This document shows, one piece after another, positions 2,787 through 50,045 of a DNA stretch of 64,000 bases. The notes below the pieces were generated by a model. It ran no database searches and was not told the origin of the DNA. It saw only the letters and a list, made by a program, of their open reading frames with translations. Location of the stretch: the sequence record MH494197.1. One strand, given 5' to 3'. This DNA is from Escherichia phage CMSTMSU. The translations under genes and the position numbers were made by a program. Position 1 is the first letter of the stretch, and every line of letters begins with the position of its first letter.

Positions 2787-3411
2787 TTATTGGTAATATT
2801 TCGACAGTACTGAATAGATTTTCAAACGTAGTTCATCCCAGTTGTTAACATAGTCATACCCATAACCATTTTTATACATATGATTGTGGGACGCTCGCAT
2901 CATAACTGATGGGATACCCAATTCCATTGATGTTTCAATATTATTGATATAATCATCAATCATCAGTTTTACGTCATATCGTTCTTTTAATTCTACTAGT
3001 GCTTCATGCTTAGATTCATTCATTTCAACAATGATGATTTCATCAAAACATGTCTCACCAAATACATGCATAAGATTAGTATTGCGAAGTACCTCGCTAT
3101 AACCTTTCTTACCACACTTAGTCAGTACTATGAATTTTTCCTTGTAAAACGATCACGCAGTTCATGCATAATACTTACAGTGTTAGTTTCTACAGGTTTT
3201 AGTAATCCAAACATATACGAACGTTGATTGAATTCAGTAATGATCTCTTGAACTTTTTTCGTGAAACACCAAACCATTCGGATAAATCGTATGCGAGTGG
3301 GTATGGTGTTGTTGGGTTGATATCATATTGGAGTTTTGCGTATTCTCCTAATGAACCAATGTGATCTAGTAGTACTTCATCACAGTCGAATACAATACAA
3401 CGGTCTTTCAT
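2787..3411 (-). CDS. HAD-superfamily 5-prime-nucleotidase-like protein, frameshifted
   Basis: N-terminus MKDRCIVFDCDEVLLDH resembles the DxDxV HAD motif of deoxyribonucleotidases; fragments 3199..3411 and 2787..3071 joined via a third frame. Confidence 0.45.
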
Positions 3412-5619: not shown

Positions 5620-5962
5620 TCATGTTGTAATGTTCAAACAAATCAATCTCATACATTACACGTTCACGGGCTTCATCCGATGTACATTTCTGTAAAAGTA
5701 CTCACGCAAGTTGATGTTATCGTACACTGGATCATAACGCCATAGCTCATGGTTTTATCATGTTCTATTGTATAATCCAGCATACGCTGTTCTAAACCAA
5801 ATTTTTACAATTATCGTTAAATTTCAATCGTTCCGGTTCATCAATCTCCTGTAGCTGTAAGTACTGAATATCTGCACCACAGTTGATTGCATACACGACT
5901 GCATTAAGGTTACATTTTACATCACCATTGGGACTTATAAATCTGTTTCCTTGTACTTTCAT
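5620..5962 (-). CDS. hypothetical protein, frameshifted
   Basis: ATG at 5960-5962 (MKVQGNRFISPNGDVKCNLNAVVYAINCG..) followed by fragments in other frames; no ORF of 60 aa survives. Confidence 0.25.
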
Positions 5963-6004
5963 TTTTCTTCTTCTGATCCTCTTCGTTATCCGTTAAGTAA
6001 GAGT

Positions 6005-6202
6005 TCATGTCAAATATACATGGGTCTTGTTCATCATAGGAGGTTTTTCTTTTTGTCCCTGACGAATCTCTAATTCAGCATAGCACTGATTCAGAACGGT
6101 TTGCATGTTACCAACAATCATATCACTCATACCTGCTGCACGAGCAGACGTAATACGCATCGATTGTTCGTTAATTTTCAATTGTAACTCTTTCTCGGTC
6201 AT
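6005..6202 (-). CDS. hypothetical protein (65 aa)
   Basis: ORF only. Confidence 0.3.
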   Translation of the reverse strand: MTEKELQLKINEQSMRITSARAAGMSDMIVGNMQTVLNQCYAELEIRQGQKEKPPMMNKTHVYLT

Positions 6203-6232
6203 GGTTGATGGATCAAAAATGGATTGAACATA

Positions 6233-6786
6233 TCATCCTCCTAAATTGCTGTTTTGTAATGAAATCAAAAATGTATCATGAACGTAGTTTTCGAATTCAT
6301 GTGCAAAGAATCCAAACTCAACTCCTGTGATTTCAAACTCAACACCAACCATCTTACCATGTTCATTGTTCTGAAGTAAAGTGTTAAAGAATGCTTCGCC
6401 CTTTCCGTGCACAATATGCAACTGGAATGATTGGCATAAATTTCTTTTCAACTCCATTTTCTTCGTATGGGTGATTCATGAAGCGAGGAACAGTGTCAAG
6501 CATCTCATCAGAAATTCCGTATAGCATCTACATACAAACCACGGTTCTGTAAATCAGTTGGGTCTTTCACAAGGTTAGTTGTGTCTTCGCCAATTGCTGC
6601 AAAAATATTTTGACGCAAGCCAAATATTTCACCGAGTGTTCCGTTATCAATTTGCGTGTAACTTCTTGGATTCTTAGAAACTGACACCAATGAACCTGCT
6701 GGTAAAACTTCACGGTATAATATATCATACTGCAAGTTACCTTGGTTGTCAAGTGCTGACATTACTTTATAGTTTCCCATTACCAT
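6233..6786 (-). CDS. one or two hypothetical proteins
   Basis: ORF 6508..6786 followed by MLYGISDEML.. and ORF 6233..6457 in a shifted frame. Confidence 0.3.
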
Positions 6787-6879
6787 TCTAAATTTTCCAT
6801 CAGGTATAGTTGCACCAGTTTGGTTTATGATATTTTCCCTAAGTACTTTTTAATATCACTCAACGTAGTGTAAGTATAG

Positions 6880-8638
6880 TTCTGACTCAAAAGTTTTCTT
6901 TTAATAAAATACGTGGTACTTTTTGTAACCCGTATCTATCATCTGATTGACGATGGAAAGCTTGATTTGTAAATGATGGTGTACTAATACACTTAAACCA
7001 TTCACGTTCAAAATAAACAGAAGGTACAATATGTGCACTTAAGTAGTTTTGTCCAAAACCACGTACAATTTTAAGTTTAAATAACTTGGACGCAACACCA
7101 CCTTCAGTGTCATATGCTTTGATGTTGAATTCTAAATTTATATCATCATTTGCACTGAAATCTAAACTTTTGCATATGCCGTCCCGACCAAGAACCCATC
7201 TGCGGTGAGGTCCAAACCATATTTGCGAATATCATCAGGTCCACCATCTAATACATAAGATACCTGATTAGTACTGGTAGTTTGTATTTGTGGATAAGTA
7301 CTGTGACCGAAATATTCACCCACATGAATACTACCTAAATCACTATCAGTTGTGAAGTCTATTGAGTTTCCTTCTTCTGCGTTCACTAGAACACGGAACA
7401 TCTTCTCTTCACCTATAATATTCTCACCTAAGCTTGAATCATAATATCCTAAATCAATCCAATCTGAACTTTTAAACACTGGCTTTGTTTCACCTAGATC
7501 ATATTCACCAGAGATTACATATGGATATACAACGTTATCTTTCAACTGATACAAATGATTAGGTAAAGGTTTATCACCATCAGCGTATATACCATCTACA
7601 TTGTCTGGACATACCCACATTTGATATGCTTTGAAACGTTGGTTTATAGCGAAGCGGTCAGTGTCATAACTATATGTACTCAAAATATCAACAATTTCAA
7701 CTTTGAAATATGCATCACATGCATCAGAGTCATATAGGAATGTTTGCAGAAATTGTCCATTTGGGTTGAAAACCAATCCTGAATCTAGTAACTCCCCAGA
7801 GCTAGTTTGAATATTAACCTTAATTTCTTTATTAATACCAAATACAGGCCATATATTATCAATAGGACGTAGGATTGCATAATCATCAGTAATGTGGCGA
7901 GCAGGAACTTCTGCTGGGGTCATATCGAGTAGACGATACGCTGGATAAAATACTCTAGGAGATAGGTCTGTTGATGTATCAGTTCCTAAAATAAATGGAC
8001 GACGGCGACCAAATCCCTGTACAAATAAAGTACTGTTGGAACCGTATTCAATATCGCCAATACAATATAATTTGTCATCATCACCGATTTCGATTCCGGA
8101 GTAACCCACACTTCCTGACTATCATATTCAATTGTTACTTCATTTGAACCAATTTCACCACTAGGGAAATGTTACCATAGTACATAACATTTACTGCTTG
8201 AAGATAAAAGTTAATCTGTTCAGAGTTGTTAAATGTACCATCATCTTTACAATGCAATTTAATAAAATAAACATCTTCGGTATTAGTGCTTGCCGATAGA
8301 TCAAATTGAGTTTTATCAATTTTACATTTGTGCTTACCATTAATCAACTTGTTACCAGTAATACCTGATGATATAGGTGTGAGATTAGATTCATCATTTC
8401 CAACATACACTGCGTAGTGATCTTCTGGTTGAAATACTGCATCAGAACTGTCCAAACCCTGAATAGTTAGAATCATCTCTAAGTATTCGTTTTCATTAAG
8501 TATATAACTATCATCCGTTGTGGTTTCTTTGTTGATACTCAAACGCACAAGAATGTCTTGTCCTTCTTGTATATATCGAGCATCGGCTTTTATATCCCAT
8601 CTAGGGTAAAAGTTGTCATTATAATTCTCCATAGCCAA
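6880..8638 (-). CDS. large hypothetical protein (~580 aa), possibly virion-associated, frameshifted
   Basis: ORFs 8135..8638 and 7162..8109 plus an open frame continuing to ~6880; TATAAATA box just upstream at 8658-8665. Confidence 0.4.
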
Positions 8639-41959: not shown

Positions 41960-42460
41960 TTTATTCTCGATAGAAAAGGACGCGTAATGCGTCCTTATGG
42001 ATAGTTATTCTAAACGTGCATCTTCAATACCCGCAGCACGTAGTCTCACAATATTGTTTAACTGAAAAGCTTTCATCTCTAAGGATTTAACAATACTGGA
42101 AAACGTATTACGGATATATGATACTTCATTTATTAGTTCGGATAATTCACAAACTTCTTTATCACCTTCAACATACTTTTACAGTCAGAAGATGATAGTG
42201 CTCGACGATATGCTTCAAGGAAATATTTAAACTTTTCAGCTTGTAGTTGACGCATTTCAATTTCTAGCATTTCAAGTACCGCTTTAGTTCTTGAAGCTGA
42301 CTGAGACGAGTCTCATGCCAGCCGAATCTCCTGAGCAATCTTTTCAATGATGCCAATCTTTTTAACTTCACGACGAGCTTCTTCAGTTTCTTTTTCGAAG
42401 TGTTCAATCATGTCGATTATTTTAGATTTATCATCTTTGATGATCCAATGCCAAGGTTTC
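41960..42460 (-). CDS. hypothetical protein, frameshifted; UvsY-like only by position
   Basis: MKPWHWIIKDDKSKII.. with downstream fragments; lies between exonuclease and UvsX; sequence similarity not established. Confidence 0.25.
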
Positions 42461-42461
42461 A

Positions 42462-43579
42462 TTATTCCTCACTACTTCCAATATCAGTACCAAATGATTC
42501 ATCACCTTTTTCTTCTTCTTTGACTTCTTCAATCAAAGGGTGACGTTTGAATTGATTCATAACTAAATCAAGACAAGAATCTTCGTTACGCATCCATTCT
42601 TTACGATATTTTAGAATCTGTTCACCAGTGTCAATATCAACGTACATTAGACGTTACCCGATTTAACGATAAGTTCATATTTCTCGAACATATCTAGTAG
42701 ACCACTGCGTGGGTCCATACCTTTATCCCAAGGAATTTTAATCTCAACATCTTCAAATGGTTTGTTGTAACGAGTCTTCATGACTTTACATTTAGAACGA
42801 ATACCACTTACATCTGAAGTCTTGTTGCCTTCTTCATCTTCTTTAAGTTTTAGTTTACCCATTGCGATAACCATAGAAGATGCATAAATCAAACCACTAC
42901 CACCAGATACTTTTGGATCAGGGTTGAACATATCTTGGGATTCATAACTATGGTTTACACAAACCATACCAATGTTAAGTGAACCAATCGAGTTTACGCA
43001 GTTGGTGATGTAAGCTTTAAGCTGTTTAGGTTTGTGACCCATATCACCTTTCAAGTTACCAGCTTTCATCTGGTCATTAGCAACTTCAGTATTCAACATA
43101 CCAATTGAGTCGATAATGAATAATACTTTTTGACGTTCTTCTTTAGGAGTATTTTCGTATTCTTTACGATACCCTTCGATGAACTCATAGGTAAATTTAG
43201 CAACATCACCAATCATACCCATGTTTACTTTTAGTAGTTTTTCTTCTGAAGTGTCTACACCTAGTGCTTGTAGCCAATCTGAATCCAATGCGTTCTCGGA
43301 ATCAATCATAACAACAAAGATACCTTGTTGTTGTGCTTCACGGGCGATGTTTCCAGAAACGATAAATGATTTACCAGAACCAGATTCACCAGCAAACATT
43401 GTTACTTTACCCAGTGGAATACCACGGTCAAAATAACCACTAATACGATAGTTCAAAGCAAAGTTACCAGTACTAATCCATGTATCAGGATCATGAAAGC
43501 CTACGCTAACACCAGTATTCTTTTTAACGCTACCAGTACTATTTTTTAGAATGTTTGCAAAACCACTTGTCATTTTCAT
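42462..43579 (-). CDS. uvsX: UvsX recombinase (RecA family)
   Basis: Walker A FAGESGSGKSF, FIIDSIG, KGMDPRSGLLDMF; C-terminal tail in ORF 42462..42647. Confidence 0.85.
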
Positions 43580-43643
43580 AATTCGCTCCTTGAATTTTAT
43601 GAATAAAACCGCAAACTCCGTTGCCCTTAACTTTCAAATACTA

Positions 43644-44687
43644 TTACTTACCTTGTTGTTTCAAACGAGCAACTAGTGCAGATGCAGAAAGTTGTTCTTT
43701 TGGAGCTTCAGCTACTGGTGCTGGTGCAGCAGCTACTGGTTCAGCAGCAGGAGTAGGAGTAGCTACTGGTGCTTGCGGTGCAGGAGTTTGTGCAGGAGCA
43801 GGTTGTTGTACTGGAGCTTGTGGAGCAGGTTTGTTTTCACTAATAGTACCAGTTGTTGGTTTTGTACACCTGCTGGACGGTAAGCGAAAGCCCAACGTGC
43901 AGGGTCATAAGGTTTACCATCAACAGATGCTTCGAACATTTCTTCGATAGCTTTTAGTTCTTCTGAGTTGGTTGTTTTGGCATAAAATCATTTAGATTAT
44001 ATAGACCAAACTTTTCAATCGCTGCCAGTTCTTCTTCATTGAGTGGACGCTCTGACATGGAGAATTGAGACATGTCATAGCTATTGTAACCACCACCATT
44101 CTTAGTTTTAACAATACCAAAGTCACGACCGTGAATGTAGTGAGTTGGTAGTTCTTTGATGCCCGGTTTAGCAGGATAGATTTAACTTTATCAAAGATAT
44201 CTTTGTTAGCTAGGATACGACGGATTGGGTTTTCTGGAGCAATATCGTCTTTTACTGCTACGCTATCAGAGCAACGAAACATTGCATTAGATAGGTTTTC
44301 TTTTCCAGTAACGACCAGCCATTGCTTTCAGTTCTTCGTTTCCAGTTTCATTCGCACTTTGGAACCATTGACGTACTTCTTTAAGAATTGGACATGATTT
44401 AGGAACCCACATTTCGTTACATGGTACTTGAACGGTAACTTTATCGGTGTGCATACCAACAATACCTTGGAACGTTAGGTTGATCATATCACGTTCACGC
44501 CAGAAGAATGGGTTAGACTCATCAGCATCTGGTAGAAAACGTAGGTTTAGTGGTTCATTGTAAGGGACATTCCAGAAAGCTAGGAAAGAATCGGCTTTAC
44601 GTTCACCTGTAAATGTACCATTCTTCTGTGCTTCTGCTTTTCTTGTTCAGCTTTTAGTTTTGCACGAATTTCAGCTAGAGTTTGCAT
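43644..44687 (-). CDS. gp32: single-stranded DNA-binding protein (T4 gp32-like), frameshifted
   Basis: FLAFWNVPYNEPLNLRFLPDADESNPFFW core; Pro/Ala-rich C-terminal repeat PAPQAPVQQPAPAQTPAPQAPV. Confidence 0.75.
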
Positions 44688-44841
44688 ATTGGGCTTCCTT
44701 GTCATTAGTTTGTTTGTTAAGTTTTAACGGGCTATTAACGTTGATTTGTCTTCATTGACTCATCAACAATTTACATTATATCATGGGATTTTTAACCGTC
44801 CCAAGGTTTTTTACTCTGTTTGTCAAGGCTCATTGCCCTGA

Positions 44842-50045
<5,204 letters not shown>

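Follow-up and report, generated by a model that had tools for sequence, protein, structure and literature searches.

How a jumbo phage's SSB (a protein that binds single-stranded DNA) ends, and what its Pro/Ala-rich tail might serve, is the question raised by a gene at positions 43644 to 44687, minus strand, in the stretch of Escherichia phage CMSTMSU (record MH494197.1) analyzed here. This stretch, referred to as the window, is 64,000 nucleotides (nt) long, and coordinates are window positions unless another genome is named. Its phage is a jumbo phage of Escherichia coli of the genus Asteriusvirus (the PBECO4/121Q group). The first-pass annotation had described a gp32-like SSB that ends in a repetitive Pro/Ala-rich tail, possibly an expandable flexible linker; we confirmed this observation in part, and its interpretation is partly supported. 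The tail is likely a disordered linker that carries a tethered interaction helix at its very end.

The gene product is a gp32-type single-stranded DNA (ssDNA)-binding protein, as had been proposed. Its gene is 98.9% identical at the DNA level to that of Escherichia phages EC.P1, Ecwhy_1, and fEgEco12, where it is annotated as SSB/gp32; fEgEco12 and EC.P1 are the closest relatives. The ORF list (ORF, open reading frame) and a three-frame translation contained no single SSB ORF in the window, as the coding sequence is scattered among several frames. When it was aligned to fEgEco12 and EC.P1, six one-base deletions became apparent inside the gene (43860, 43965, 44164, 44269, 44301, and 44638). 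The gene measures 1044 nt here, whereas intact relatives have 1050 nt, made up of 349 codons and a stop. Filling the deletions gave a 349-residue protein, which differs from XBS49453.1 of fEgEco12 in a single residue, located at a garbled CCWGG site. Pfam PF08804 (gp32) matched residues 49-245 with 29.8 bits against a cut-off of 26.8, and PHROG 1192 (phage single-strand DNA binding protein) matched with an E value of 2.3e-97, residues 1-347 aligning to positions 2-326 of the 326 in the profile, tail included. Comparison by hhalign with an alignment of 51 T4-like gp32 proteins gave a probability of 96.5% (E = 7.8e-10) over the core only, and PF00436, the oligonucleotide-binding (OB) fold of bacterial SSBs, gave no match at E values up to 1.

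The AlphaFold2 model, run on a 100-sequence alignment, had a mean predicted local distance difference test score (pLDDT) of 84.9, and Foldseek related it to the RB69/T4 gp32 cores (2a1k, E = 2.7e-10, TM-score of 0.69 on the target; 1gpc, E = 2.9e-9, TM-score of 0.72). The protein begins with an amphipathic helix, MQTLAEIRAKLKAEQEKAEAQK (residues 1-22; 44623-44687, minus strand), recognized from the translation, from AlphaFold (residues 4-22, pLDDT of 82-84), and from its conservation across the family as M-x-[ST]-L-A-E-I-R-A-x-L-K. The folded ssDNA-binding core follows, an OB fold of gp32 type (residues ~23-279; 43857-44622, minus strand), delimited by pLDDT (above 90 for residues 31-280), Foldseek, and hhalign. 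At the positions of the T4 zinc ligands H64, C77, C87, and C90 the protein has Q74, C90, C99, and L102; thus, two of the four ligands are kept. Both cysteines are present in 100% of the family, while position 74 is Asn in 55% and position 102 is Leu in 82%. The jumbo-type gp32 family may lack structural zinc or bind it differently. In the same family, E92 is invariant. Searching the solved structures with the sequence of the whole protein was uninformative, giving only a low-complexity match of the linker to EB1 (E = 0.034).

Behind the core lies the Pro/Ala-rich segment (residues 280-334, 55 amino acids; 43692-43856, minus strand), identified by translation, composition, and pLDDT. Its minus-strand frame translates to TTGTISENKPAPQAPVQQPAPAQTPAPQAPVATPTPAAEPVAAAPAPVAEAPKEQ, in which the Pro/Ala peptide quoted by the first-pass annotation is contained exactly. 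Proline makes up 25% and alanine 27% of the residues (52% together), the net charge is -2, and the G+C content of the DNA is 50%, compared with ~36% for the window on average. When the PBECO4 genome (348 kb) was scanned in 30-residue segments, the SSB linker was the sole strongly Pro/Ala-rich one, with 63% Pro+Ala against 47% for the runner-up. The enrichment is real and far beyond chance. AlphaFold predicted residues 283-335 to be disordered (pLDDT below 50), which, together with the hypervariability of the segment among homologs, favors the flexible linker that had been suggested.

The repetitive character of this DNA is weaker than had been described. The short units reported earlier are present, with all three copies of GCAGGAG in the 64-kb window lying inside the linker and TGGTGC occurring three times, while GCAGGAGC is complete only once. 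The single array returned by Tandem Repeats Finder comprises a 21-nt unit present twice, with 80% match, and the other direct-repeat families are 61-74% identical; a clean tandem repeat was consequently rejected. In seven independently sequenced isolates (98-99% identity), the tail-coding DNA carries no indel and 1-3 substitutions and has equal length. The linker differs in length only between more distant relatives, and the idea of an expandable repeat found no support in these isolates.

The protein does not end with the Pro/Ala-rich stretch. Fifteen more codons, encoding the conserved terminal peptide LSASALVARLKQQGK (residues 335-349; 43647-43691, minus strand), precede the stop codon placed by the ORF list and the translation (43644-43646, minus strand). 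The Pro/Ala tail that had been reported is real, but the conserved terminal helix behind it, the likely functional element, had been missed. Translation and AlphaFold describe this tip as a short amphipathic helix (residues 337-347, pLDDT of 57-70). The distal residues, whose acidity the earlier annotation had proposed to examine, are basic (net charge, +3), and the tip is the most conserved part of the tail.

The homolog search yielded over 5000 proteins, and the top 120 were compared here. After a conserved sequence ending in PARWAFAYRPAGVQKP, all 120 carry a low-complexity segment rich in Pro, Ala, Thr, Val, and Gln; across 119 homologs, this linker is hypervariable in sequence and 28-95 residues long. 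Nevertheless, 119 of the 120 end with the motif S-x-x-[D/A]-[L/I]-[L/V/I]-A-[K/R]-[L/I]-[K/R] followed by 3-6 polar or basic residues, and this motif is retained down to 45% overall identity in phages of Klebsiella, Xanthomonas, and Vibrio, as well as in metagenomes. Relatives with a 95% identical core have linkers that are 58-67% identical (shuffle baseline, 48 +/- 4%) and tips that are 100% identical. The same contrast appears in the DNA compared with PBECO4, with ~90% identity in the gene body, 65-72% in the linker, and 97-100% in the tip and intergenic region. The block of 97-100% identity spans 43580-43715 (3081-3215 in relative L001, aligned to L008), comprising the last ~70 nt of the SSB gene and the intergenic region, and a recombination boundary or a constraint at the nucleic acid level is possible there. 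A second, internal copy of the tip motif was found in 13 of 119 proteins, whose linkers have a median of 75 residues compared with 58. One such copy is TGAADLLSKLK, and the carriers are P0023, P0025, and P0026 (Klebsiella phage KP13-7-like) plus ten others. With its leash constrained in composition but not in sequence, its end strongly constrained, and its motif duplicated in modular fashion, the tail behaves as would be expected if a disordered linker held a short linear interaction motif.

Four parts make up the SSB: a helix at the N terminus, the ssDNA-binding OB-fold core, a predicted unfolded linker of 55 residues, and a basic amphipathic helix of 15 residues at the C terminus. The Pro/Ala linker would act as an entropic spacer, flexible yet rather stiff and extended, that holds the terminal helix away from the SSB-coated DNA, and its sequence would drift fast because only composition and approximate length matter. 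The tethered helix may capture, or be captured by, another protein, and this putative partner would most likely be a phage replication or recombination factor. The identity and fold of the gene product, the predicted disorder and the hypervariability of the linker, and the conservation and helical propensity of the tip are established here, and we infer that the tip is most likely a protein-docking motif, on the plan of the linker and tip of E. coli SSB and of the C-terminal A domain of T4 gp32.

Several points weigh against this reading. The tip is basic, while characterized SSB tips are acidic, so the analogy with them is architectural and not chemical. The AlphaFold confidence of the tip helix is only 57-70. 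Furthermore, the identity of tip DNA and following intergenic region to PBECO4 exceeds that of the gene body, and some of this local conservation could come from a DNA or RNA signal or from recent exchange. Finally, the SSB is the only protein in the 348-kb PBECO4 genome with the motif at its C terminus (the runner-up scored 9.7 bits, compared with 25.6 bits for the SSB), indicating that the tip is not shared by clients of one hub. As none of the other window ORFs ends with it either, a tip motif common to several proteins was rejected. In PBECO4, the N terminus MSLDTTRAADLLTRL of gp347 (191813-192181, 122 amino acids, hypothetical) resembles the tip, with TRAADLLTRL scoring 15.7 bits; this score is about chance level, with ~0.6 such hits expected among the termini scanned.

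Comparison with known systems places this tail as unusual chemistry on an ordinary, well-known design, in a gene already annotated as SSB in relatives. The OB-fold core and the plan of N-terminal helix, core, and unstructured C-terminal tail are shared with T4/RB69 gp32. The tail ends are also alike in that both have a short helix motif with equal hydrophobic spacing, L-D-D-L-L-x-x-L in T4-like gp32 and S-A-L-V-A-R-L or D-L-L-A-K-L here. All 115 T4-like proteins end in [D/E]-L-D-D-L-L-x-x-L (also LDDLL[NA][GD]L), and from these 115 sequences we derived the criterion of a terminal L-L-x-x-L helix, which is not a published one. In line with it, 119 of 120 jumbo-type proteins carry [LI]-[LV]-A-[KR]-[LI] in the tip. 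When a matrix was made from the ends of T4-like proteins, the jumbo-type tip came first among all positions in 52 of the 119 jumbo-type proteins and within the top three in 63; in the reverse direction, a matrix of jumbo-type tips placed the T4 tip within the top three positions in 64 of 115. Profile-profile alignment with hhalign covered the core only and not the termini and did not show homology of the tips; because it stopped at the core, the likeness is read from the motif matrices, which suggest common descent of the jumbo-type and T4-like tips.

The differences from T4 gp32 are mainly chemical. Its tail is acidic and rich in Ser and Asp, whereas the one described here is near neutral and rich in Pro, Ala, Thr, Val, and Gln, and here a basic tip, with 3-6 additional polar or basic residues behind it, takes the place of its acidic one. 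The mean net charge of the linker or tail is -2.4 in the jumbo-type family and -6.7 in the 115 T4-like proteins, and that of the last 12 residues is +2.0 and -4.9, respectively. Thus, the earlier contrast with the acidic end of T4 gp32 stands with respect to charge (-2 for the linker and +3 for the tip of the window protein) and fails with respect to hydrophobic spacing. The basic T4 cooperativity region, or B domain, contains the KRKST 'LAST' motif, while its counterpart here, the N-terminal helix, has no KRK and is still predicted to be helical, and the His-Cys3 zinc site of T4 keeps only two of its four ligands. Terminal helices of T4 gp32 are known to serve in docking: in helical form, residues 248-270 bind the Dda helicase, and the helix at the N terminus docks on the neighboring core (PMC11551737); the Dda-binding helix has no visible counterpart in the window protein.

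The E. coli SSB consists of an unrelated, tetrameric PF00436 OB fold in place of the monomeric gp32-type core, yet in dimensions it is the closest analog: its linker has 56 residues, and partner proteins are recruited by a tip of 9 residues (PMC7145534), nearly the size of the 55-residue low-complexity linker and short conserved terminal peptide found here. In both proteins, the linker varies in sequence and length and the tip is conserved. In contrast, the bacterial linker is rich in Gly, Gln, and Pro and not in Pro and Ala, and its tip is an acidic DDDIPF peptide and not a basic helix. The likeness to the bacterial SSB tail is one of function and architecture only, an analogy between unrelated folds. 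Ala/Pro-rich linkers between domains, such as those of TonB and of the E2 chains of 2-oxo-acid dehydrogenases, are of similar composition and share the behavior expected of extended, semirigid, and protease-sensitive spacers; these join folded domains, whereas the SSB linker joins a domain to a 15-residue peptide. The orthologs within Asteriusvirus (phAPEC6 Gp204, PBECO4 gp498, and 121Q gp6) have the same gene, a ~95% identical core protein, and an identical tip, but their linkers, of 47-61 residues compared with 55, cannot be aligned with that of the window. The phAPEC6 ortholog Gp204 and the RecA-like Gp203 were detected by mass spectrometry in purified virions (PMC7247149), and because of this detection some records label the SSB ortholog a 'structural protein'. 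No description of such a tail architecture turned up in the literature, in which no search was aimed specifically at it.

Other explanations of the tail were weighed against that of a tethered docking helix. One of them, which we regard as unlikely, is self-regulation, in which the tip mimics the protein's own N-terminal cooperativity helix, competes for its groove on the neighboring SSB core, and so tunes the assembly and turnover of the filament. Outside the tip itself, the tip matrix matches the N-terminal helix best in 100 of 119 proteins, in one fixed register. Helix and tip have a mean BLOSUM62 score of 10.4 over 10 residues, while random 10-mers from the core average -8.8 +/- 6.1 and reach 10.4 in 0.4% of cases. 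Applied to the T4-like gp32 proteins, the jumbo-type tip matrix selects their N-terminal helix as well, in 100 of 115 cases, and the T4 C-terminal domain is reported to speed filament reorganization, according to a 2024 article in J Mol Biol as cited in PMC12893549. It is therefore conceivable, though with low probability, that both ends of gp32-type SSBs carry a like amphipathic helix, S/T-x-x-[E/D]-[I/L]-x-A-[K/R]-L in the jumbo-type family and an analog of it in T4-like gp32, with the leashed C-terminal copy as competitor or alternative ligand for the cooperativity-helix groove. However, the matrix scores are modest (median of 3.3 bits compared with a shuffle null of -3.1 +/- 3.7), the two helices show no covariation within proteins (permutation P = 0.72), and in an AlphaFold run without residues 1-30, which had a shallower alignment, the pLDDT of the tip was 52-60 compared with 57-70. 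Both motifs are also low-information amphipathic helices whose resemblance may be generic. If true, groove competition by the tip would be a tunable off-switch for the filament and would offer a structural basis for the control that the C-terminal domain exerts on gp32 filament dynamics, and the charge of the tip, acidic in T4-like proteins and basic here, would have coevolved with the receiving surface.

Even less probable is a role in localization, with the basic tethered helix targeting the SSB to the membrane, as the helices of MinD and FtsA do, or the linker driving condensates, as the E. coli SSB linker does in phase separation. A basic, amphipathic helix with a net charge of +2 to +3 at the extreme C terminus, behind a flexible linker, would suit such a role, and the presence of Gp204 and Gp203 in phAPEC6 virions (PMC7247149) hints at an unusual localization. 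The hydrophobic moment of the tip, 0.34, exceeds the 0.27 obtained for the MinD helix by the same computation, although these numbers have no power to discriminate between the two cases. Against it, the hydrophobic face consists only of Leu, Val, and Ala, without aromatics, and T4-like gp32 proteins, whose ends share the hydrophobic spacing, are strongly acidic, a charge that precludes binding to anionic membranes. We give still less credence to a tail with no role at the protein level, in which the linker is tolerated filler and the 3' end is kept by an overlapping nucleic acid signal such as the terminator or expression signals of the uvsX-like gene. For the tip DNA and intergenic region, identity is indeed 97-100% between two clades that differ by ~10% in their gene bodies, and both a terminator hairpin and the next gene's ribosome-binding site lie directly 3'. 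However, at 45-55% protein identity the motif is kept in other spellings (SAQDILAAIRNRGN, STADLLAKLKASKG, and SVDDLLSMIRNRK), and therefore the DNA sequence itself is not what is conserved; moreover, 13 proteins have a duplicate of the motif within the linker, and Rfam gave no match in or around the gene at E values up to 1. The chance that the Pro/Ala repeat is an artefact of assembly or sequencing, a collapsed or expanded tandem repeat, is close to nil. The window does carry many sequencing-type errors, ~4.7 deletions per kb, but these are single-base deletions in homopolymers or at CCWGG sites and never changes of repeat units. As the tail is free of indels relative to the seven isolates, the repeat is not an assembly artefact, and it is the surrounding gene that deletions riddle instead.

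In the 7.3 kb between 40511 and 47779, all 34 indels relative to fEgEco12 and EC.P1 are deletions in the window, and all 34 fall in homopolymers (T5 to T4, C4 to C3, or G3 to G2) or at CCWGG sites, in intergenic DNA as well. All five of the relative's CCWGG sites are garbled in the window. The window as a whole contains no CCWGG, whereas ~47 are expected from the density in PBECO4, and no homopolymer of at least 7 bases, against ~27 expected, while GATC is unaffected (109 compared with 113). Systematic deletions of this kind are a familiar signature of uncorrected nanopore basecalling of Dcm-methylated DNA, and this is probably the origin of the window-wide pattern. By extrapolation, we estimate ~300 one-base errors in the whole window, with many ORFs falsely fragmented. 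One of the deletions, at 43860 (T5 to T4 on the plus strand, by alignment to the two relatives), lies at the boundary of core and linker, exactly at the edge of the Pro/Ala feature, and detaches the tail-coding ORF from the core. This homopolymer deletion is the sole local difference beside the tail-coding DNA. A programmed frameshift at this position was considered and rejected, as the deletion is one of the 34 found in 7.3 kb, all of them at homopolymers or CCWGG sites. Given the estimated ~300 errors, observations made at the ORF level in this window need checking against intact relatives.

A sigma-70-like promoter match (TTGGGA, an 18-nt spacer, and TG-TATAAT; 44775-44804, minus strand), a match to the consensus only, lies ~90 nt upstream of the SSB start and is also present at the same site in relative L001. 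Just 3' of the SSB stop, the terminator scan and the alignment place the remnant of an intrinsic terminator hairpin (43600-43635, minus strand). In relatives, this terminator reads GGGGCAACGGAGTTTGCCCC and then the T-run GTTTTATTT and lies between the SSB and uvsX-like genes; the scan found it in L001 (3131 to 3112, minus strand). In the window, the same scan detected no terminator behind the SSB stop, and the stem is eroded by four deletions (43602, 43610, 43624, and 43632). On the plus strand, the ORF list contains a Gly/Cys/Ala-rich ORF of 109 amino acids (43621-43950) and, nested inside it, one of 63 amino acids (43692-43883). The earlier annotation was right to call the Cys/Gly-rich antisense ORFs spurious, because both are wholly antisense to a conserved gene with more than 5000 homologs; they are by-products of Pro/Ala codons on the opposite strand.

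The SSB gene neighborhood is a module with UvsX-like, UvsY-like, exonuclease, and UvsW-like genes, and PBECO4 also encodes homologs of a Dda-like helicase, primase, and RNase H. The replication and recombination proteins of PBECO4 include gp497 (UvsX-like), gp496 (UvsY-like), gp495 (exonuclease), gp494 (UvsW-like), gp461 (Dda-like), gp485 (primase), gp484 (AAA ATPase), gp512 (polymerase), and gp462 and gp503 (RNase H). Breakage of neighboring genes was seen within 42133-43579 on the minus strand. The downstream gene for a UvsX/RecA-like recombinase (42462-43579, minus strand; 1119 nt in relatives) is truncated by a deletion at 42653, and the UvsY-like gene, of 462 nt in relatives, is broken at 42177, 42285, and 42324 and shows as three short overlapping ORFs. 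In the terminase region, the large terminase of fEgEco12 is given as two overlapping coding sequences (5710-7047 and 7010 onwards; 5710-7312 in L001/L002, corresponding to ~46190-47779 in the window). The upstream one is annotated as a hypothetical protein in EC.P1, and PBECO4 has a terminase gene of 1638 nt and an overlapping 'hypothetical' gene of 684 nt. These annotation differences could reflect a split gene or an annotation issue.

SSB tails are hubs that organize replication and recombination proteins on ssDNA. To our knowledge, all well-studied ones (E. coli SSB, T4 gp32, and T7 gp2.5) are acidic. A family with over 5000 members in the database, drawn from metagenomes and Rak2/PBECO4-like jumbo phages, keeps the leash-and-tip plan with a neutral Pro/Ala leash and a basic helical tip. 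Since this combination is kept in so large a family, architecture, and not charge, is the conserved principle. According to a report on these jumbo phages, they have no T4 gp45 clamp, no gp62, and no gp59 loader (PMC5259590), and the 15-residue tip offers a defined bait peptide for partners of their poorly understood replisome.

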